30,076 nt of DNA from a virus: UHGV virus genome UHGV-1385480; one strand, 5' to 3'. The notes under the pieces are model-generated. The model was given only the letters and a program-made list of their open reading frames with translations. It was not told the DNA's origin and did not search any database. Both the position numbers and the translations under genes were made by a program. This document shows positions 3,280-20,143 of this stretch, piece after piece. Numbering within the stretch: the first letter of the stretch is position 1; every line of letters starts with the position of its first letter.

Positions 3280-3537
3280 ATGAAGATGATTAAGATTTTA
3301 GGTTTAATTTTATCTATGAATTCTTGCTTGGCATTGGCAACCGTAGACCAAGAAATGCGTAGACCGCTAACCTATAGAGAAGATGCTTTCATTGATGGAG
3401 CACATAAGACATTGAAATTGCTATGTCAAAAGACCACCAGTAATTACGATGAATACAGAAAATGTTATGAGGAATCACTAGACATTTATTCTGATGAGGT
3501 GAGAAAGATTTTCATAGAACAAGAAAATAAATCATAG
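3280..3537 (+). CDS. small exported protein (85 aa)
   Basis: MKMIKILGLILSMNSCLALATV hydrophobic N-terminus with an ALA cleavage motif; weak SD; the track start at 3265 is TTG; ends TAG 3535-3537. Confidence 0.4.
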   Translation: MKMIKILGLILSMNSCLALATVDQEMRRPLTYREDAFIDGAHKTLKLLCQKTTSNYDEYRKCYEESLDIYSDEVRKIFIEQENKS

Positions 3538-11321: not shown

Positions 11322-13754
11322 TTACATCTTACGACGCTGTGCGTCTTCTACCGCCTGAGCAACTAACTTAGCGTGACGTTTGATAGCATCCATAACCATC
11401 TTGTCTGAGCTATTAACGTTGCCGTTAATGTTCAAAGGCGCATTAACTTCAATCGGCTGAGAGTTACCACCGCCTGATTTTTGAGCAGATAAGAAGTCTT
11501 TCAAATCACCGTTAGTACGCTGATCAACTACTCGTTCACCCTTATCAAGCAACCATGTACCCTCACGCGGGATGTTATCGATACCATCATGAGCCATACC
11601 GCTAACATTAGTAGACTTGATGTTTGCAATGTTCCCCATGTTCTGAGAAACAGCCAATGCAGCAGCAGCGATCTTTTGACCTGTGGTTACGTTGGTCGGA
11701 TCGTTCCATGCATCGGTAGCAGCCGTCCACATGTTCACCGTCGCTTGTCCAATTGAGAATGCTTTATGAGCATTGAAAGCCATCTGCATAGCTTTTGTGT
11801 TTTCCTGCCCGAAGAGAGTCATTGCAGCAGCAAAACCGCCGTACATATCATCAGCTATTGACTGACGAGCATCAGCATATTTCTTTTCAATTGCAGCCAT
11901 CCGTTTTTGATGGTTTTCATTGAGTTTTTCTAATGCTTCCATCCGTTTAGCCGGATCATTAATACCGTCAATCTTGAGTTTATCGGTCTTATAATCTTGT
12001 TCAGCATCCGATTTCTCTTTATCGATTGCATTAAATTTAGCAAACGGATTATTTGAGTCTTGATAATCATAACCACTAGTTAATTGATTGGTTTTATAAC
12101 CATCCATTCCCTGTAAAGAATTTTCAATCTGAGAATAGTTTTGCTCGGTATCGTTCACACGACGCATATATTCTTCGTAGGAGATAGCTTTACCATCAAG
12201 TAACCGTTTATGGCTTTCTAGCTCGTTGTCCCTGATTTGTTGCAATTGTGTTAAAGCATTCAGAGCATCAATCGGATCAGCACCCAACATCATTTTATAA
12301 ACGTTTTCAGTATTCTGATCGATTAGCGCCTGGCGTTTCGCGGCTGCGTCTTCCTGAGAGATTAAGCCCAGAGCTAACGCGTCGTTCACATCTTTTAAGC
12401 TGTTTTGCAACTGGCTATTTTGAGAAGTGATAGACGCTGCAACTTGCCCTTGCAATTTAACATCAAGTGCATTCAGTCGCTTGATTGCATCCTCGCGTGC
12501 TTTCTGTGCTTTTTCTGCGGCTTCCTTAGCCTTTTTAGCTGCCTCTTCCGCTTTCTTTTTGGCTTCTTCCTCGGCTTTCTTCTCGTTGCCAGACTTACCC
12601 AATGATTCTGGTCTTACTGGTTTATTTGGTATAGTCAAATCAGTGTTAGGATCTGCCTTGCGTGTCAGATGTTCACCTGCATCTACGACAATCAGAGCAC
12701 CACTTGAAGTTTTATAAGACCCACCAAAACGTTTCTTAAATCCTTCAACATCAAAGCCAGCAGTACGAGGATCGACACCAGCACCACGGATCGCGGCCTT
12801 TTCCCAATCTGCTAGATTATTCCAACGCTTTTCTTTATTGTACTTGTCAATAATCTTTTGAGCGTCTTTATGGTTGGCGTTAAGAATACCACCAGTTGCG
12901 GTCTTGCCTTCTTTATTCAGTCGATCTAATGCCCTGAATAGAGAACTCTTTTCCCAATCAATATTAAACCATTCAAATAACCAGTTTAAGCTATCAACCA
13001 AAGGACCAGTAATGGTCATGGCTGCGCCTTTCAGGTTATTTTCCAGCTTATTAATATTCTGAGAAAATTTATCATATTTTTTAGCGTTTTCTTCGGTGAC
13101 GTTAACAGATTGATTCTGAATAGCGATCATCGCCTCTTGAGCACTATTATATTTCTCAAGCTGGCTGGTCATATGGCTTGAATCACTGGCTAAAGATTCC
13201 ATCATGAACTTGATTTCAGCCATTGATTTTCCGGCTTTCTTCATGTCATAGAACACTTGGATCGCCGCTTTCATACCACCTTGCGGATCTGTCATGAAGT
13301 GAGCATAGTTTTCTAACTTAAGACCAACCGATTCTAAGTCATCAGCAATACCACCACCGTTAGCCCATGCATCACCCATCTTATCTAAGGTGTCTTTGTT
13401 GATATCACCGAATTTTTCAACTGTTAGGCCAGTACCAGAAAATTCCTTTTCTAGTCTTTGAAGGGATTCAATCGAGAGTCCGGTCGCCTTAGATACTTCT
13501 GAATACTGTTTAACGTATTCCGCACCAGCTTTAGCGGCTGCAACCACTGCGGTCGCAACTAAGCCGATACCACCAGCAGCCAAACCAGCAGAGCCAGCGA
13601 TCCCACGAAGAGATCCAGTCAAACCAGACAAGCCACCACCAAAATCAATACCACTTGCCTTTTCAGACAAACTATCGAGAAGGTCGGCGGCTTCACTGGT
13701 ACTTCTCCTTAGACCTTTATTATCCCCTTCTATTGTTACTATATGTTTTGTCAT
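11322..13754 (-). CDS. tail tape measure protein
   Basis: 810 aa; Gly/Ala-rich hydrophobic N-terminal region (GIAGSAGLAAGGIGLVATAVVAAAKAG) and long Ala/Lys/Glu-rich helical regions; sits between the chaperone pair and the distal tail proteins. Confidence 0.8.
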   Translation of the reverse strand: MTKHIVTIEGDNKGLRRSTSEAADLLDSLSEKASGIDFGGGLSGLTGSLRGIAGSAGLAAGGIGLVATAVVAAAKAGAEYVKQYSEVSKATGLSIESLQRLEKEFSGTGLTVEKFGDINKDTLDKMGDAWANGGGIADDLESVGLKLENYAHFMTDPQGGMKAAIQVFYDMKKAGKSMAEIKFMMESLASDSSHMTSQLEKYNSAQEAMIAIQNQSVNVTEENAKKYDKFSQNINKLENNLKGAAMTITGPLVDSLNWLFEWFNIDWEKSSLFRALDRLNKEGKTATGGILNANHKDAQKIIDKYNKEKRWNNLADWEKAAIRGAGVDPRTAGFDVEGFKKRFGGSYKTSSGALIVVDAGEHLTRKADPNTDLTIPNKPVRPESLGKSGNEKKAEEEAKKKAEEAAKKAKEAAEKAQKAREDAIKRLNALDVKLQGQVAASITSQNSQLQNSLKDVNDALALGLISQEDAAAKRQALIDQNTENVYKMMLGADPIDALNALTQLQQIRDNELESHKRLLDGKAISYEEYMRRVNDTEQNYSQIENSLQGMDGYKTNQLTSGYDYQDSNNPFAKFNAIDKEKSDAEQDYKTDKLKIDGINDPAKRMEALEKLNENHQKRMAAIEKKYADARQSIADDMYGGFAAAMTLFGQENTKAMQMAFNAHKAFSIGQATVNMWTAATDAWNDPTNVTTGQKIAAAALAVSQNMGNIANIKSTNVSGMAHDGIDNIPREGTWLLDKGERVVDQRTNGDLKDFLSAQKSGGGNSQPIEVNAPLNINGNVNSSDKMVMDAIKRHAKLVAQAVEDAQRRKM

Positions 13755-13862
13755 AAATTACCCCGTTTGTGCGCTTCTGAGTTTCTCAAGCAAAGATGGA
13801 TCGAACATGCTCAATGTTGCAGCTTTACGTTCTTCTTCTTTCTTGCGTGCAAGTTCTTCCAG

Positions 13863-14108
13863 TTATCCTTGAGTTTTAAAGAGTTTTTCTTCTCTAATTA
13901 ATTGGAATTGGCTAGGCTTGAGTTTCTTTGCAGTTTCACGAGTCATTCCTTGCGACGTCATATACATGGAATATTGCAACATCGCATTCTGCATATCATG
14001 AAACGCGGGGCTTTGTGGTTCTAAGTAGGTGTCGAAAATGTATAATTTCCAAAACAGAGTGATTGGCATATTATCCATTTCATCTTTACTAAGCCCCGAT
14101 CGCATCAT
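13863..14108 (-). CDS. tail assembly chaperone, T-like frame (probably expressed as a frameshift extension of the upstream chaperone)
   Basis: No SD before its ATG ATG; frame is -1 relative to the upstream ORF and is open from just inside that ORF's end; canonical G/GT position before the tape measure gene. Confidence 0.4.
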   Translation of the reverse strand: MMRSGLSKDEMDNMPITLFWKLYIFDTYLEPQSPAFHDMQNAMLQYSMYMTSQGMTRETAKKLKPSQFQLIREEKLFKTQG

Positions 14109-14137
14109 TTGCCGAAAATAGAAATTCAGAAGCGGGT

Positions 14138-14446
14138 TTACTTTACCTCGTTTTCAATTACTGCCGGATCTTGCATCAATGACGCTTGAGCAACCAAACC
14201 GATTAATTCACTGCGGACGTTAGTATACAGTGCCTTAACTTGTTCCATAGATTCAAATACCGGTTTACCGTCTTCATCTTCAATACAACGAAGAATCGAA
14301 CGTTCATCACGGTCTTCTTTATCAGTATTGAAAACATGTTCGTTAAATTCTTTTACTGACATAGGGCGAGCATAGAACGTGAATCCGCCGATGGTCAGAG
14401 ATTCACGTTTCGGAGAAAGAGCTTTCAGCATTTCATTAATATTCAT
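14138..14446 (-). CDS. tail assembly chaperone (gpG-like)
   Basis: 102 aa, acidic; AGAGGA SD; position immediately upstream of the T-frame ORF and the tape measure gene. Confidence 0.5.
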   Translation of the reverse strand: MNINEMLKALSPKRESLTIGGFTFYARPMSVKEFNEHVFNTDKEDRDERSILRCIEDEDGKPVFESMEQVKALYTNVRSELIGLVAQASLMQDPAVIENEVK

Positions 14447-14488: not shown

Positions 14489-14995
14489 TTAAGAGATTTT
14501 CAAAGTCTGCTTAGTGCCAGTCTTCTTAATGTTGGTAAGGAAAGCAGCCGGAGGATTGCTTAACCAATAGTAATGAAAACCACTTTGCATACTGTTATAA
14601 GGAACAGTGACAGCAGCACCACCCAAATTAACGGTTATATTCCCCGCTCTACCGTTCTGGAGATATACAGCCATAGTAGGAGTACCGCCATTGAATTGAC
14701 CAACGATAACGCCAACCAGACGCCCTACGCCCACGTTTTCGGGGTTCTCCATAGATCCTTTGCTTTGCATACCGGAAACAGGATAGTTTGAAGCAGTTAC
14801 ACCCCAGTTATTACCCAATGAAGTAGACCACGATGCAGTAGCTACAACCGTATCCATACCACGACCAGCCATTGCCGACATATTACGCGGAGCCGGAACT
14901 TTTAAAGCTGTTAATGCTTCTTTCATCCATCGCTTACCCGTCACCGATACAGCAGATGACCCGATCCAGCCAGGAACTTTAACGACATTTGCCAT
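14489..14995 (-). CDS. hypothetical structural protein (168 aa), Gly/Ala/Ser-rich
   Basis: ATG 14995 with GGAG SD immediately after the tube terminator; no family recognised. Confidence 0.45.
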   Translation of the reverse strand: MANVVKVPGWIGSSAVSVTGKRWMKEALTALKVPAPRNMSAMAGRGMDTVVATASWSTSLGNNWGVTASNYPVSGMQSKGSMENPENVGVGRLVGVIVGQFNGGTPTMAVYLQNGRAGNITVNLGGAAVTVPYNSMQSGFHYYWLSNPPAAFLTNIKKTGTKQTLKIS

Positions 14996-15169: not shown

Positions 15170-15643
15170 TCATCCGGCAGTGAAGATTTGCTGTTTCAGC
15201 GGAGCACCATCAACAGCAAAGGTAAACTCTTTCGTTACCACTTCTTCATCGCCACCGTTCATAGCAACTTTAGAAATAAAGCCGTTGAAAGCAGTGCGAA
15301 TACCAGTCTGTTTTCCGGCGTCAACATAGTATTCAACTTTGATTTGAATACGCGTACCGTCTTCGGCAGCCTTTATGAGCTTCTCATGTACCGCATCACC
15401 AGGAATGTAGTTAACGGTCAGAGTCAGATCAGGAACGTTCAGTTTACCTACCAGTTTACGGTTATACTGAGAAGAGAAGGATTTAACTTCTACAGTACCG
15501 CGCTCGATACCAGTTTCAGGAAAACCAGCACACTCTTTAATTTCTTCGTATGCTTCATCGGCAAGGTCGGTGTTAGTGGTATCGGCGTGATAGAACAGAC
15601 TTACCAGACCACCAGTAAAAATATCTTTGAATTGCTGAGACAT
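15170..15643 (-). CDS. major tail (tube) protein, putative
   Basis: 157 aa; AAGGGGT SD; followed by a strong terminator, as expected for an abundant structural protein; upstream of the chaperone pair and tape measure gene; ends in TGA rather than the TAA used by other minus-strand genes. Confidence 0.5.
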   Translation of the reverse strand: MSQQFKDIFTGGLVSLFYHADTTNTDLADEAYEEIKECAGFPETGIERGTVEVKSFSSQYNRKLVGKLNVPDLTLTVNYIPGDAVHEKLIKAAEDGTRIQIKVEYYVDAGKQTGIRTAFNGFISKVAMNGGDEEVVTKEFTFAVDGAPLKQQIFTAG

Positions 15644-15699: not shown

Positions 15700-18600
15700 T
15701 TATTTAGTTGCTTTCAGTTCGGCAATTTCTTTCTGTAATGCTTCGATCTGTGCTTTATATTTGGCGTCCATTTCCTGCATAGCCTTGATGATTAAAGCAT
15801 TGACAGCAGAGTTAGAAATAGTCTTGATTGCTTCTGGATTTTCTGGATCTTCGGTGGATTGAATACCTACTGCTTCCGGCAATACTTTTTCCAGATCCTG
15901 AGCAATAATACCTACTTCGCGTTTAATCACCGTGTCATCGGAAAGAGATTTAACTTTATCGTAGGTGTAGACTTTCAGTGAGTTTACTTTCTCTAATGCA
16001 CCGTCCTGTAATTCTTCCTTGTTAATCTTCAAACGGGAGTCAGAGCGAATGTAAACATCGTTAAAGCTACCGTTACGACCTGCGGTAAAGTCACCAGCAG
16101 CGTTAAAGTCAAAGTTAGTATCGTTAACATGCAGACGAACAAGAGCGTTACCGATAGTACCGCTAGGAACGTGTACACCCATTGCTGCAATGTGATATTT
16201 ACCCCAATGAGTAGCTTTCCAGATGTTATGAGCGGAATCGGTTGATTGAGGGCAATCAACTTGCAAGCCGGATGCACGATCGCGCCAACTAGACCAGCTA
16301 CCACCAGAAACGTTACCACGAATCAAACCTTTATCAGATCCGCCGACGCTACCAGATTCAAGATGAATCATCTTATCCGCAAGTTTCCACGTCTGGGCTT
16401 GTTTCTGACCACGGAAGCGAATAACACCAGCATCATCAGAATACATCAAACCTAGTTCTAATCCAGTTGGATCTCTAAACCAGATATGCTTATTACCAGT
16501 GCGACGAAATTCAATATCAGCACCGTTAAGCGTGATATTACCGCCAGTGTGAATTGCTTGAGGCTTAACAGTACCGTTGATGGCAAACTCAATTGCCGTA
16601 GTACCCGGACCGCCCGGACGTTGGGTATACCAATGCCAACCACTTTCATCACCACATTCTAATACTTGTTTACGACTATCGTTACCCCAAGCACGAATAT
16701 TAAAGCTGGATGTAGCTGTATTTTTACCCCAAGTAAACTTACCACCAACTTCAAGATCGCCTAAGAAGTTTGCTTTAAGAGCACCAGTACCCATCGCACG
16801 CTCTGTGCTAAAATGTCTACCTTGACTATCTTCTAGGTACAAAACGTTATCACGGGCATTATTACTATCACCCCAATGATTAAATCGAATATAATCACGA
16901 GATCCGCTTCTCCCAGCAGAGAAGGTTAAAAACCCTTTCTCGATATATGTATCGCCAGCAAATCGAGCAGCACGGCTATCTCTTTCGAGAACTAATGCGC
17001 CTTCGTTACCATCACCACCTAAAGTAACTTTACCGTTAGTCAAATCGTAAATGAATGGTCGGTTTCCGTTCCAACCACCAAATCTATCATTTTCGGCAGT
17101 AGACAACAGATAAACTTTACCACCATCATTTCGCCAGAATGCACCATACTTACCGTAAATCATACGGAATGCATCAGCGTTAGCGGAATAATATTGACCA
17201 TTGGTATATACAATTTTTGTTTTTCCTGTAGTCAAATTTACTTGTCCACTACCTTCCAAATCAAATGAGTTAGCACCAACATCATTACGCCACACAAAAC
17301 CATCACTAGTACCATCCGCATGACCGATATAACCACTACGTTGGTTTTTACCATCACGACGATCCCACCACGCCATATATGCAGCTTGACCAGTCTGGCG
17401 ATGTAAAGTCATCGCATTACCACTACCGTGCAATTCCATTTTACCAGTAATTACATATCCTTTATAATTACCCGGTATTGCACTATTAGAATCAATTCTA
17501 ATAACTTCTGTAGAATCTGTAGCACCGGTAGCAAGACGATATACAGCACCCTGAACGGTTTCATGCCAAACCATTTCGTTATAGTTGCTACGGAATTTAC
17601 GAATATATTTCCGTCCAGTACCTTTATCGTTACTCAAGTGAACAATGTCATAGCTGTTTTGTGTGTTATCATCAAAACTTAACACACCACGTTTATTTTC
17701 AGTATTAAAAAGAGTTACGTTGCGACCACCGATAACACCAACGGAAGGTTTAATTAACGTGGCTTCCGGCGTATCATAAACCGTCAAACTTACATAAACA
17801 GATTTCCCATATTCGACAATAACGTTATCGGTATAACGCTGATATTTCACGTAGATATCATAGTTATCACCGGAAGTATTGACAGCAAATACCTCAAAAT
17901 CTTTGTTTGTATTTCTACGGTATGCAATTACGTTAAGACCTTTAGGTCTATCGTTACCACTACGCAGAAGAATTTCTACTACGTCAACCTGATCATATGC
18001 CGTAACGTTGTAACCATTACCACCATGAATACGGAAAAACACACTACGCCCGTTTTGTGGAATTGTTGCGGTTGCCAATTTGAAATATGCAGATACGTTT
18101 TCGCTAGAATTGGGAACAGACATAACGACGTTTTTAACAAACATCTTATCAACTTCGGCTTTGGTGTATGCGCCAATCTCGCCAGGAGTCGGCTTATCAC
18201 CTTCGTGATACATCTTATAGCTAAAGTTCTTCTGTCCTTCTCTATCAAAACCATAGGTTTCAACACGAGATCCACCAGACGCATAACGGAAAGTAAATCC
18301 GCGACCGTGCGCTTTACCGGCAGAATGAGGAACATTAAGAGTTAGATCCATGAGTCCATCTTGACCATTGGTACGGAAAGCACCAAAGTAGTTAAGATCT
18401 CTCGCTGTCTGGTCTTCCAAATAGTTAGCTGTCTTGCTTAACAGATACCCACCATGCTTAGTATTGGTATTCTTCTTGATGTAAGCAGCATCGGCACTAC
18501 CTTCAATAGAATCAATTCGCTGGTTAGCTGCGGCAATTGCGGCATCGGCACTGGCCTTGTTATTTGCAACAGTTCTTTCAATGGCTGTCTTATTCGCAGA

Positions 18601-19230
18601 GACCGTACTAGTAAGATTGGTGATCTTCGTGTCCGCATCTTTCTTATTATCCGCTACCGTCTTTTCTATTGCTGATTTATTTGCTGCGACAGTATTCGTT
18701 AAGTTGGTAACGTTGGTATTCGTCTGATCAACTCGCGCATTAATATCTGTCTTGTTCTTGTTAATTGTCGCGTTGATAGTATCGCGGGTTGAAGTAATAG
18801 TCTGATTCAGTTCAGTCTTAGCAGCCGCCAGAGCGTTAGCCGCTTCGGTTTTATTGTTACCTACTGTGGTAGTCAAAGCATCAATTCGCTTGTTGGCTGC
18901 GGTATCGCCAGCAGTGATTGAAGCATTGAGAGTATCACGGGTAGAAGTGATAGTCTGATTAAGTTCAGCTTTAGCCGTAGCCAGATTATTAGCGGCTTCG
19001 GTTTTATTTGCTGAAATGACTTTATCTGTGTTGACCTTGTTGGTGTCTACTTTCGTATTCAGTTCAGCGTGTTTTTCTGGAGAAACACTAATTTGGACTA
19101 CGTTATTATTTTTATCTTTGGTGTAAATCACATGGTCCGCCAGTTGTAAGGCGATCTCGCCCTGTGATAATTGTTCCGGCGTTGGTTTTTTACCAGCCGT
19201 TTGTGTGCGTTTAAATTGGATCGACTGCAT
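15700..19230 (-). CDS. tail fibre protein with C-terminal intramolecular chaperone (peptidase S74-like) domain
   Basis: 1176 aa; N-terminal repeated Asn/Thr/Ala-rich segments; C-terminal ~114 aa starting SDSRLKINKEEL... ending in a coiled coil, matching the self-cleaving chaperone domain of endosialidase / L-shaped fibre proteins. Confidence 0.8.
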   Translation of the reverse strand: MQSIQFKRTQTAGKKPTPEQLSQGEIALQLADHVIYTKDKNNNVVQISVSPEKHAELNTKVDTNKVNTDKVISANKTEAANNLATAKAELNQTITSTRDTLNASITAGDTAANKRIDALTTTVGNNKTEAANALAAAKTELNQTITSTRDTINATINKNKTDINARVDQTNTNVTNLTNTVAANKSAIEKTVADNKKDADTKITNLTSTVSANKTAIERTVANNKASADAAIAAANQRIDSIEGSADAAYIKKNTNTKHGGYLLSKTANYLEDQTARDLNYFGAFRTNGQDGLMDLTLNVPHSAGKAHGRGFTFRYASGGSRVETYGFDREGQKNFSYKMYHEGDKPTPGEIGAYTKAEVDKMFVKNVVMSVPNSSENVSAYFKLATATIPQNGRSVFFRIHGGNGYNVTAYDQVDVVEILLRSGNDRPKGLNVIAYRRNTNKDFEVFAVNTSGDNYDIYVKYQRYTDNVIVEYGKSVYVSLTVYDTPEATLIKPSVGVIGGRNVTLFNTENKRGVLSFDDNTQNSYDIVHLSNDKGTGRKYIRKFRSNYNEMVWHETVQGAVYRLATGATDSTEVIRIDSNSAIPGNYKGYVITGKMELHGSGNAMTLHRQTGQAAYMAWWDRRDGKNQRSGYIGHADGTSDGFVWRNDVGANSFDLEGSGQVNLTTGKTKIVYTNGQYYSANADAFRMIYGKYGAFWRNDGGKVYLLSTAENDRFGGWNGNRPFIYDLTNGKVTLGGDGNEGALVLERDSRAARFAGDTYIEKGFLTFSAGRSGSRDYIRFNHWGDSNNARDNVLYLEDSQGRHFSTERAMGTGALKANFLGDLEVGGKFTWGKNTATSSFNIRAWGNDSRKQVLECGDESGWHWYTQRPGGPGTTAIEFAINGTVKPQAIHTGGNITLNGADIEFRRTGNKHIWFRDPTGLELGLMYSDDAGVIRFRGQKQAQTWKLADKMIHLESGSVGGSDKGLIRGNVSGGSWSSWRDRASGLQVDCPQSTDSAHNIWKATHWGKYHIAAMGVHVPSGTIGNALVRLHVNDTNFDFNAAGDFTAGRNGSFNDVYIRSDSRLKINKEELQDGALEKVNSLKVYTYDKVKSLSDDTVIKREVGIIAQDLEKVLPEAVGIQSTEDPENPEAIKTISNSAVNALIIKAMQEMDAKYKAQIEALQKEIAELKATK
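18540..19010 (-). repeat. imperfect tandem repeats in the tail fibre N-terminal shaft
   Basis: Protein repeats NKTEAAN(N/A)LA(T/A)AK(A/T)ELNQTITSTRDT and TNLT(N/S)TV(A/S)ANK(S/T)AIE(K/R)TVA; the underlying DNA blocks are visibly similar. Confidence 0.5.
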
Positions 19231-19309: not shown

Positions 19310-20143
19310 TTAGTATTCGCCGAAATCGATCCGGTCAGTCTTAGCCACTGCGCCAATTTCGCTAGGTGTCGGTTTCTCATTGGTGGAATATACCTTGATC
19401 CATTCAGAGCGACCGTTTTCCTGAATATTTCGGACGCGTAAACGTGGTGCGCCAGAAGTATTACAGGTTAATTGCCATGCGCCATGCTCATTAGCTTGAA
19501 GGTGAATTAATGATGTGTCGGCTGAATATGGATTACCGCTAGCAGTTCCCTTGTAAGTTACGAAACGGTTTCCGGCTAAAGCATCACTATCAATCGGACC
19601 TGTGAATGGATGTACACCTGCACCTACGCCATAATCCCCGCGACGGAGAAGACGACCCTCCGTTGCAATACCGCGATCCAAAATCCCGCCATCTGGTTCA
19701 AGTTTAAATTCCAGTGTTACAGCTTTGTTATCACTACCACGGGTTTTGTGTGATGTGACGTAAGCATCATAGATGACATAGTAACCAGTGTTAGCAGCAC
19801 TATAGCCAGAGTTCACAACATAGAACATACGGAAGCGTAAAGGTGTTTTATCCTCTACCGCTTTCATCAACATTGCTTGATGTTCGTCATCCAGAACACG
19901 GTTTAACGTGAGTGTTGTCGGTTCCAGTCTACGATAACCAGCAAGTTTCCCCGTAGCGTCCTGATCGTACTCTTCCAGAGTTTCTATCTCTGTGGATTCG
20001 GTTAGCGTAGGAAATGCTGCAACGTTCTCGATGGAACTAAAGCTAGGATCGAAAAAGTCGACCTGATTGTCTATCTGGTTAGAGATCGACACTTCAACAT
20101 GTGACCCCGTGAAAATATCTAAGTTATCTTGTGTAATATTCAT
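19310..20143 (-). CDS. structural protein (277 aa), likely tail fibre-associated
   Basis: C-terminus contains EKPTPSEIGAVAKT, a motif shared with two sites in the adjacent tail fibre; AAGGGGT SD. Confidence 0.4.
   Translation of the reverse strand: MNITQDNLDIFTGSHVEVSISNQIDNQVDFFDPSFSSIENVAAFPTLTESTEIETLEEYDQDATGKLAGYRRLEPTTLTLNRVLDDEHQAMLMKAVEDKTPLRFRMFYVVNSGYSAANTGYYVIYDAYVTSHKTRGSDNKAVTLEFKLEPDGGILDRGIATEGRLLRRGDYGVGAGVHPFTGPIDSDALAGNRFVTYKGTASGNPYSADTSLIHLQANEHGAWQLTCNTSGAPRLRVRNIQENGRSEWIKVYSTNEKPTPSEIGAVAKTDRIDFGEY

Follow-up and report, generated by a model that had tools for sequence, protein, structure and literature searches.

How is a phage tail gene translated when its reading frame opens inside the end of its neighbour and carries no start signals of its own? 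The question is raised by a G-like tail assembly chaperone ORF and a T-like ORF in the -1 frame relative to it, both on the minus strand of UHGV virus genome UHGV-1385480, of which a stretch of 30,076 nucleotides was analysed (hereafter the window). An initial annotation proposed that ribosomes slip back by one nucleotide on the last sense codon of G, stimulated by the adjoining stop codon, and so produce a G-T fusion. Our analysis argues with good confidence for a recoding site of a lambda-type tail assembly chaperone pair in a siphovirus-like E. coli prophage, with a predicted GT fusion; the -1 shift itself is likewise well supported as a prediction, whereas the stimulatory role of the adjacent stop is plausible but unproven, the arguments on its two sides being about equal in weight.

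The G and T reading frames and their neighbourhood

Read directly on the minus strand, G ends with GTA (14146-14144), AAG (14143-14141) and TAA (14140-14138), i.e., with the codons GUA AAG UAA that the initial annotation had given. The 102-aa G is the product of standard decoding, and its Shine-Dalgarno sequence is strong (aagaggaaacaagaATG). Profile searches agree, in part with scores below the curated cutoffs, with the chaperone identities originally assigned to the two products. G matches phrog_344 "tail assembly chaperone" (E 2.3e-7) and, under the curated cutoff, Pfam Phage_TAC_13 (E 1.8e-4; 22.3 vs 28.8 bits). The window-type T sequence matches Pfam PF06223 (Phage_tail_T, minor tail protein T) weakly, at 20.7 bits against a cutoff of 25.9, and nine of 20 T-family members match the same profile at E<=0.01, the best at E 1.5e-6. 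PF06223 is also precomputed for two T homologues, and the source name of one homologue is "phage tail assembly protein T". No PHROG matches the -1-frame product, and no useful match to the T profile came from PDB sequences. By these profile matches, the downstream frame is a putative remote relative of lambda T.

The T frame overlaps the end of G by 16 nt (5 codons) and opens at 14153, directly after a -1-frame TGA, as had been claimed; the first residues of the open -1 frame are KRGK-VNPLLNFYFRQMM.... Because this TGA closes the T frame upstream, a productive shift is confined to the 16-nt overlap. The earliest ATG, GTG or TTG of the T frame is an ATG that lies 33 nt past the slip site and 30 nt past the G stop, and the 20 nt before it (tgaatttctattttcggcaa) hold no GGAG/GAGG/AGGA-type Shine-Dalgarno sequence, in agreement with the initial reading of T as an ORF without one. 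The coordinates of these features are collected in Table 1, together with the junctions found in relatives.

Table 1. Features of the G-T locus in the window and G-T junction architectures in related loci.
Feature	Position	Strand	Remarks
Tail tube protein gene	15170..15643	minus	phrog_158, E 7.5e-22; Pfam Phage_TTP_11
gp38-like adhesin gene	14489-14995	minus	between tube and G; Pfam Gp38_N
G-like tail assembly chaperone ORF	14138..14446	minus	102 aa and UAA stop; from the ORF list
-1-frame TGA	14154..14156	minus	closes the T frame upstream
Conserved block GTAAAGTAAAC	14136..14146	minus	GUA, slip AAG, UAA and the first bases of the T-frame codons GUA AAC
A_AAG, proposed -1 slip tetramer	14141..14144	minus	AAG (14143-14141) overlaps AAA (14144-14142)
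Zero-frame UAA stop	14138..14140	minus	directly 3' of the slip codon; candidate pause element ("shifty stop")
T-frame coding sequence after the shift	13866..14141	minus	92 codons, VNPLL...KTQG; from translation
T-frame codons before the first possible start	14109..14141	minus	11 codons; readable only after a frameshift
First T-frame ATG	14106..14108	minus	no Shine-Dalgarno; used as T start by gene callers
Premature T-frame TAA	13863..13865	minus	this window only; CAAGGATAA vs AAAGAAGAA in the 99.3%-identical L033
Orphaned T C-terminus	13758..13862	minus	34 codons (LEELARKKEEERKAATLSMFDPSLLEKLRSAQTG, 13862-13761) and the ancestral T stop; ends 3 nt before the tape-measure start codon
Tape measure protein gene	11322..13754	minus	810 aa; phrog_13674, E 2.4e-64; directly downstream of T
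GUA_AAG_UAA			window and most relatives, to ~40% T identity; E. coli, Salmonella, Providencia, Pantoea-like locus
GUA_AAG_UAG	L015, ~3298-3312		3-nt insertion: GTA AAG TAG TAA ACC
GUA_AAG_UGA			L093; UGA in place of UAA, synonymous in the T frame
GCA_AAG_UAA			L082; Val-to-Ala, by the sole Ala codon preserving the A
CUA_AAG_UAA			Serratia
GAA_AAG_UAA			L097, L098, L102, L103
GAA_AAG_AAC/AAA/CCC_stop			L076, L078, L099, L100, L101; stop one codon later
GUA_AAG_AAA_ACC_CGC_UCU_UGA			Edwardsiella
GUA_AAG_GCA or GAA, plus 10 codons			L079, L096
U_UUA_AAG			DCP80; canonical heptamer
A_AAA_AAG			L083; canonical heptamer
A_AAA_AAG_UAA			L095; canonical heptamer

Homologues of G fall into 31 clusters, almost every one of 102 aa. 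None of them contains an in-frame GT fusion ORF, and the G search yielded no protein of 200 aa or more; a query with an artificial full-length GT fusion gave no match at E<=1e-5, though G and T clusters are in the database, and is uninformative. A slippage annotation or a GT product is absent from all database records examined. In RefSeq, G is called "cytochrome" or hypothetical and T is a separate hypothetical protein (PGAP). The "cytochrome" label, found in RefSeq/NCBI on G of E. coli, Salmonella, Proteus and Edwardsiella (WP_112037349.1 and at least 20 clusters), looks like a propagated misannotation. One G variant in nr (P0104, E. coli, 96 aa) ends in ...ENEVKCKPASEFLFSANDAIGA; the stop after the slip Lys is gone and +1-frame sequence is read on, with a junction indel presumably behind the lost stop.

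The genes are arranged as tube - G - T - tape measure, with the G-T pair between the tube and tape-measure genes. The gp38-like insertion of the window is absent from L034, and in relatives of that sort the order runs without interruption. The remaining window is a prophage structural module with terminase, portal, head, fibre and distal tail genes. The prophage family is found in 51 of 5426 complete E. coli genomes (~1%; best identity 99.3%), in Salmonella, Serratia, Edwardsiella, Providencia, Klebsiella and Enterobacter, and the element also occurs in ~40 IMG/VR proviral contigs. No close phage relative emerged: when the phage collection was searched by megablast with the G-T region, nothing matched, the phage relative DCP80 being found by tblastn only. 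A T-profile scan of genome contigs returned no confirmed locus. Two further features of the module were observed. The 1176-aa fibre protein (15700-19230, minus strand) has ~2.7 kb with 77-83% DNA identity to gp37 of RB49-like T-even phages (Krischvirus), and with the gp38-like adhesin gene it forms a myovirus fibre module inside a siphovirus-type prophage. Just upstream of the fibre gene, a 277-aa protein (19310-20143, minus strand), whose N-terminal half matches the tail tube PHROG of the 157-aa tube protein, represents another paralogue of the tube protein, extended at its C-terminus.

The proposed slip site in the window and in relatives

Slippage of the canonical tandem type (dnaX or IS3-IS911) calls for a heptamer X_XXY_YYZ together with a hairpin or pseudoknot 5-9 nt downstream and/or a Shine-Dalgarno-like element 10-14 nt upstream; at the window junction, both the heptamer and the accompanying structure or Shine-Dalgarno-like element are missing. 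The four in-frame heptamers of the 16-nt overlap (T_GAA_AAC, A_AAC_GAG, C_GAG_GTA and G_GTA_AAG) were checked and none fits X_XXY_YYZ, just as the initial annotation had stated. The shift was therein assigned to A_AAG, on which Lys-tRNA re-pairs from AAG to AAA at the stop. As a motif, AAAGTAA is found in seven copies in the window against 7.0 expected, i.e., at chance frequency, so that the significance of the site lies in its position and conservation and not in a motif count; the 11-mer GTAAAGTAAAC occurs once against 0.02 expected. In a 6-sequence alignment all 11 columns of this block are invariant. In a 9-sequence alignment (52-80% nt identity), where 172 of 712 columns are invariant (24%), no invariant run is longer than TAAAG, which shares the first place, and a single column of TAAAG-N-AAA varies. 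The initial annotation had pointed to relatives as a check on AAAGTAA at the G end, and there it is kept down to ~40% T identity.

We compared junctions from E. coli variants, Salmonella, Providencia, Serratia, Edwardsiella, Enterobacter, Klebsiella, a Pantoea-like contig, phage DCP80 and metagenomes. T lies in the -1 frame in all ~15 architectures examined except L071-L073, with G/T overlaps of 10, 16, 19, 22, 25, 28, 31, 34, 40, 46, 49, 55 and 109 nt; relatives lacking the overlap arrangement had been named as evidence against the proposal, and on this count the comparison did not refute it. The A_AAG is the sole sequence element common to all these architectures. The L015, L093 and L082 variants, which differ from the window in the stop or in the codon before AAG, all retain A_AAG, a stop and the -1 relationship. 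In the T-frame protein alignment, DCP80 included, no gap is found from the residue right after the slip Lys onwards (K-VNPLLNFYFRQMMRSGL in the window, K-VNWAKRFKYAQMMRRGL and K-ADWVKRFRYRLILRGL in relatives). Because A_AAG is the only element present in all architectures and the T alignment begins just after its Lys, we place the slip there; and since canonical heptamers of relatives stand at the same aligned position, the window site is positionally homologous to them. Those parts of the initial proposal that are open to sequence comparison, the position of the slip included, therefore stand, while stop stimulation is only plausible, the stop not being adjacent in all lineages.

Other ways into the T frame were considered and rejected. 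An alternative slip site at A_AAC (GAA_AAC, 14152-14148) is shared by neither L034 nor L031, and A_AAC falls outside the group of efficient tetramers. Transcriptional slippage was discarded on account of the short A run (3 nt), and a +1 shift because the frame that it enters stays open for just 17 codons and T is not encoded there.

In L071 (1474-1530), and also in L072 and L073 (38-40% T identity), T lies in frame 0 right after the G stop, which is preceded by an A8 run (GAA AAA AAA TAA GAG CGA...), and neither a -1 nor a +1 shift reaches it. Translation of T in these loci would need UAA readthrough or an own start (TTG or ATG) without a Shine-Dalgarno sequence.

Proposed mechanism and competing readings

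In the proposed mechanism, the majority of ribosomes would terminate at UAA and release the 102-aa G. In a minority, tRNA-Lys(UUU), after reading AAG as the final sense codon, would re-pair with the overlapping AAA one nucleotide upstream. GUA AAC CCG... would then be read in the T frame, giving a G-T fusion ...IENEVK-VNPLLNF..., across whose slip site the translation matches the junction peptide ...IENEVK-VNPLL... predicted at the outset. The stop in the A site would give peptidyl-tRNA-Lys time to re-pair before GUA (Val) is read. That the shift takes place with Lys-tRNA in the P site, while the adjacent stop awaits release factor, is a step for which we see an even chance, and the efficiency may lie in the low-percent range. 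The roles of the two products are presumed from the analogy with lambda gpG/gpGT: coating of the tape measure protein by G and by the G portion of GT, and recruitment of the tail tube protein by the T portion.

A single tRNA-Lys reads both AAA and AAG in E. coli (PMC5009743), and A_AAG is by far the most -1-prone tetramer in this bacterium; in reporters, A_AAG alone gives ~0.15% shifting vs a background of 0.11%, and with a pseudoknot up to 5.6% (PMC4066793). Possible stimulators were looked for at the window site. In single folds, shuffled versions of the downstream RNA fold better than the sequence itself (z +2.0 and +1.7); the consensus fold has -2.4 kcal/mol and no covariation; and over eight lineages, with z from -1.4 to +1.7 (up to +1.6 in the seven other than the window), no RNA structure was found. 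Nor was a conserved upstream Shine-Dalgarno-like stimulator found; a GAGG that abuts the window slip site is not conserved in relatives, and its spacing is wrong for a -1 shift.

The one recurring neighbour of the slip site is a stop codon, and UAA, UAG and UGA all occur there. It is adjacent or one codon off in ~9 of the ~14 -1-frame architectures and 4-11 codons off in five. Since several relatives keep A_AAG with the stop one or 4-11 codons later, an adjacent stop is frequent and not obligatory. A rule by which the adjacent stop occurs only where the heptamer is absent is broken by L095 (A_AAA_AAG_UAA). We tentatively suggest, at somewhat less than an even chance, that the stop beside a bare A_AAG is a selected, stimulator-free -1 "shifty stop", which would stand in for the heptamer's P-site half as well as for an RNA structure.

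It is conceivable, if rather unlikely, that the stop plays no part and that Lys-tRNA slips in the A site or during translocation on an NNA_AAG hexamer of the IS1222/cdd type, with the GT product unchanged and the end of G at this spot a mere coincidence. Such a reading draws on the loci where A_AAG is kept with no adjacent stop, i.e., L075/L065 (GUA_AAG_AAA), L079 and L096 (11 more codons), DCP80 and L083, as well as on the other lineages with the stop one codon later. It also agrees with the literature, where hexanucleotide NNA_AAG shifting is documented, with natural use by IS1222 and presence in B. subtilis cdd (PMC5009743), and where slow A-sites weigh more in +1 than in -1 shifts (Atkins 2016 review, PMC5009743). 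However, 26 of the 31 G clusters terminate exactly at the slip Lys as their last residue, all three stop codons being used there, and no other stimulator was found. Moreover, the codon before AAG varies (GUA, GCA, CUA, GAA, UUA and AAA) and in most cases has no re-pairing available in the -1 frame, a sign of slippage by tRNA-Lys alone; with GUA, GCA, CUA and GAA ahead of AAG, a lone P-site tRNA fits better than a two-tRNA event.

A second reading of similar, rather low probability concerns this copy alone: the prophage of this genome may be decaying, with T broken and nothing functional now dependent on the shift. It arises from a detail beyond the initial annotation, a TAA in the T frame of the window (13865-13863) that takes off the last 35 T residues. 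The T of the window ends KTQG, with LEEL... stranded beyond the stop, where every relative reads KTKEELEEL..., with a sense codon there and ~35 more codons to near the tape measure start. Around the TAA, three substitutions within 9 nt distinguish the window from the 99.3%-identical prophage of E. coli strain MEI003 (NZ_CP071263). The variant is unique among all T sequences seen: none of 86 T clusters has it, and the exact 24-mer is absent from the viral contigs. Because of the premature TAA, the predicted fusion is 194 aa long and not 229, and GT may be impaired in this copy. Against decay, neither the slip site nor G nor the remaining 92 T codons show any damage, all being the same or almost the same as in relatives, and the rest of the structural ORFs of the window are long and without interruption. 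In any case, a relic would bear on present function only and does not contradict the frameshift mechanism.

It is far less probable that no fusion is made and that T has its own initiation at the 14108 ATG, e.g., through termination-reinitiation. In favour of this reading, the ATG lies 30 nt past the G stop; PGAP and other pipelines call T as its own gene, and no fused GT protein is present in the database records searched. Yet the ATG has no Shine-Dalgarno sequence, and the 11 codons ahead of it evolve as T-frame coding sequence. Among 12 unique sequences of the pre-ATG 33 nt, the variable columns number 4, 3 and 10 by T-frame codon position (10 of 17 at position 3), a pattern that indicates purifying selection on T-frame codons with no start codon of their own. 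Furthermore, DCP80 and the Klebsiella locus L078 have no Met where the window has its ATG, and the peptide ahead of their first Met is conserved. Since these two loci lack that Met, independent initiation of T cannot account for the pre-ATG conservation, and it also leaves unexplained the strict -1 relationship and the invariant A_AAG over ~15 architectures. Finally, that AAAGTAA at the G end is a chance motif with no recoding role, as its exactly chance frequency in the window would allow, can be set aside as extremely improbable and is contradicted already by the comparative series, in which the motif keeps its homologous place among changing flanking codons in lineages with as little as 34-40% T identity, the Val-to-Ala variant employs GCA, and canonical heptamers occupy the same spot in relatives.

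Comparison with known frameshift systems

The programmed -1 frameshift that yields gpG and gpGT of lambda is well characterized (Levin, Hendrix & Casjens 1993; Xu, Hendrix & Duda 2004, 2013, 2014; summarised in PMC5009743). As in lambda, two ORFs of the window lie between the tube and tape measure genes, the second in the -1 frame, overlapping the first and without own start signals; the slip codon AAG is read by tRNA-Lys, and short and long products with a common N-terminus are predicted. The lambda slip site is a canonical heptamer, G_GGA_AAG, several codons before the G stop, whereas the window has only the A_AAG half, preceded by a GUA that re-pairs poorly and followed immediately by the stop. 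Sequence similarity of lambda G and T to the window proteins is marginal. Systems of the lambda type are characterised by production of G and GT at a fixed low ratio, with both required for tail assembly.

The closest annotated phage relative is Escherichia phage DCP80 (PQ671644), with homologous G, T and tape measure proteins (30-36% identity) and T in the -1 frame. Its slip Lys and the following T residues align with the window (K-ADWVKRFRY vs K-VNWAKRFKY in the relative L031). Unlike the window, DCP80 has a canonical U_UUA_AAG, and its G runs 11 codons past it. In the record, G and T are two hypothetical proteins and slippage is not annotated, so that the U_UUA_AAG G-T site (L001, PQ671644.1; 6318-6324) is unannotated. 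Although the 141-kb DCP80 record is assigned to Straboviridae/Tevenvirinae, its tube-G-T-tape measure module is of the siphovirus type.

Single-tRNA -1 slippage on A_AAG or NNA_AAG was reportedly described by Licznar in 2003. The window site resembles the minimal sites of IS1222 (G_CGA_AAG) and B. subtilis cdd (A_CGA_AAG), at which only tRNA-Lys re-pairs cognately (Sharma 2014, PMC4066793), and the host here likewise has a single tRNA-Lys(UUU), as for slippage of the IS1222 type. However, IS1222 and cdd depend on an upstream Shine-Dalgarno-like sequence and/or downstream structure; neither is conserved at the window site, where the stop is the only recurring neighbour.

"Shifty stop" frameshifting is said to go back to Weiss et al. 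in 1987. The window site shares with such cases, e.g., prfB (CUU_UGA), pheL (UUC_CCC_UGA, PMC3082878) and antizyme, a shift-prone codon as the last sense codon. In slippage of this kind, efficiency is governed by the stop codon and the level of release factor. The well-studied natural shifty stops shift +1, whereas the window site would shift -1, and prfB also needs a closely spaced Shine-Dalgarno sequence. A -1 precedent is pea enation mosaic virus (G_GAU_UUU_UGG_UAG; PMC5009743, PMC4737148), in which efficiency depends on a nearby zero-frame stop, required 3 nt past the site (PMC5009743), an arrangement comparable to that of the GAA_AAG_NNN_stop relatives; unlike the window, this eukaryotic RNA virus has a heptamer of canonical type followed by hairpins.

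As to annotation, databases call T from arbitrary internal ATGs and lack the GT product; frameshift predictors based on heptamers or structure would miss the window site. For mechanism, the natural variants around one invariant A_AAG suit a test of stop-stimulated -1 slippage without RNA structure, a matter that the literature handles mainly for +1 shifts. The series holds heptamers with the stop far or adjacent and tetramers with the stop adjacent, one codon away or with none nearby; if the shifty-stop reading is true, it could measure directly what a stop contributes to -1, and not +1, frameshifting in E. coli. Collectively, the comparison indicates that the site is an unannotated member of the well-known G/GT frameshift class, predicted to work with a minimal slip site in place of a heptamer and structure.
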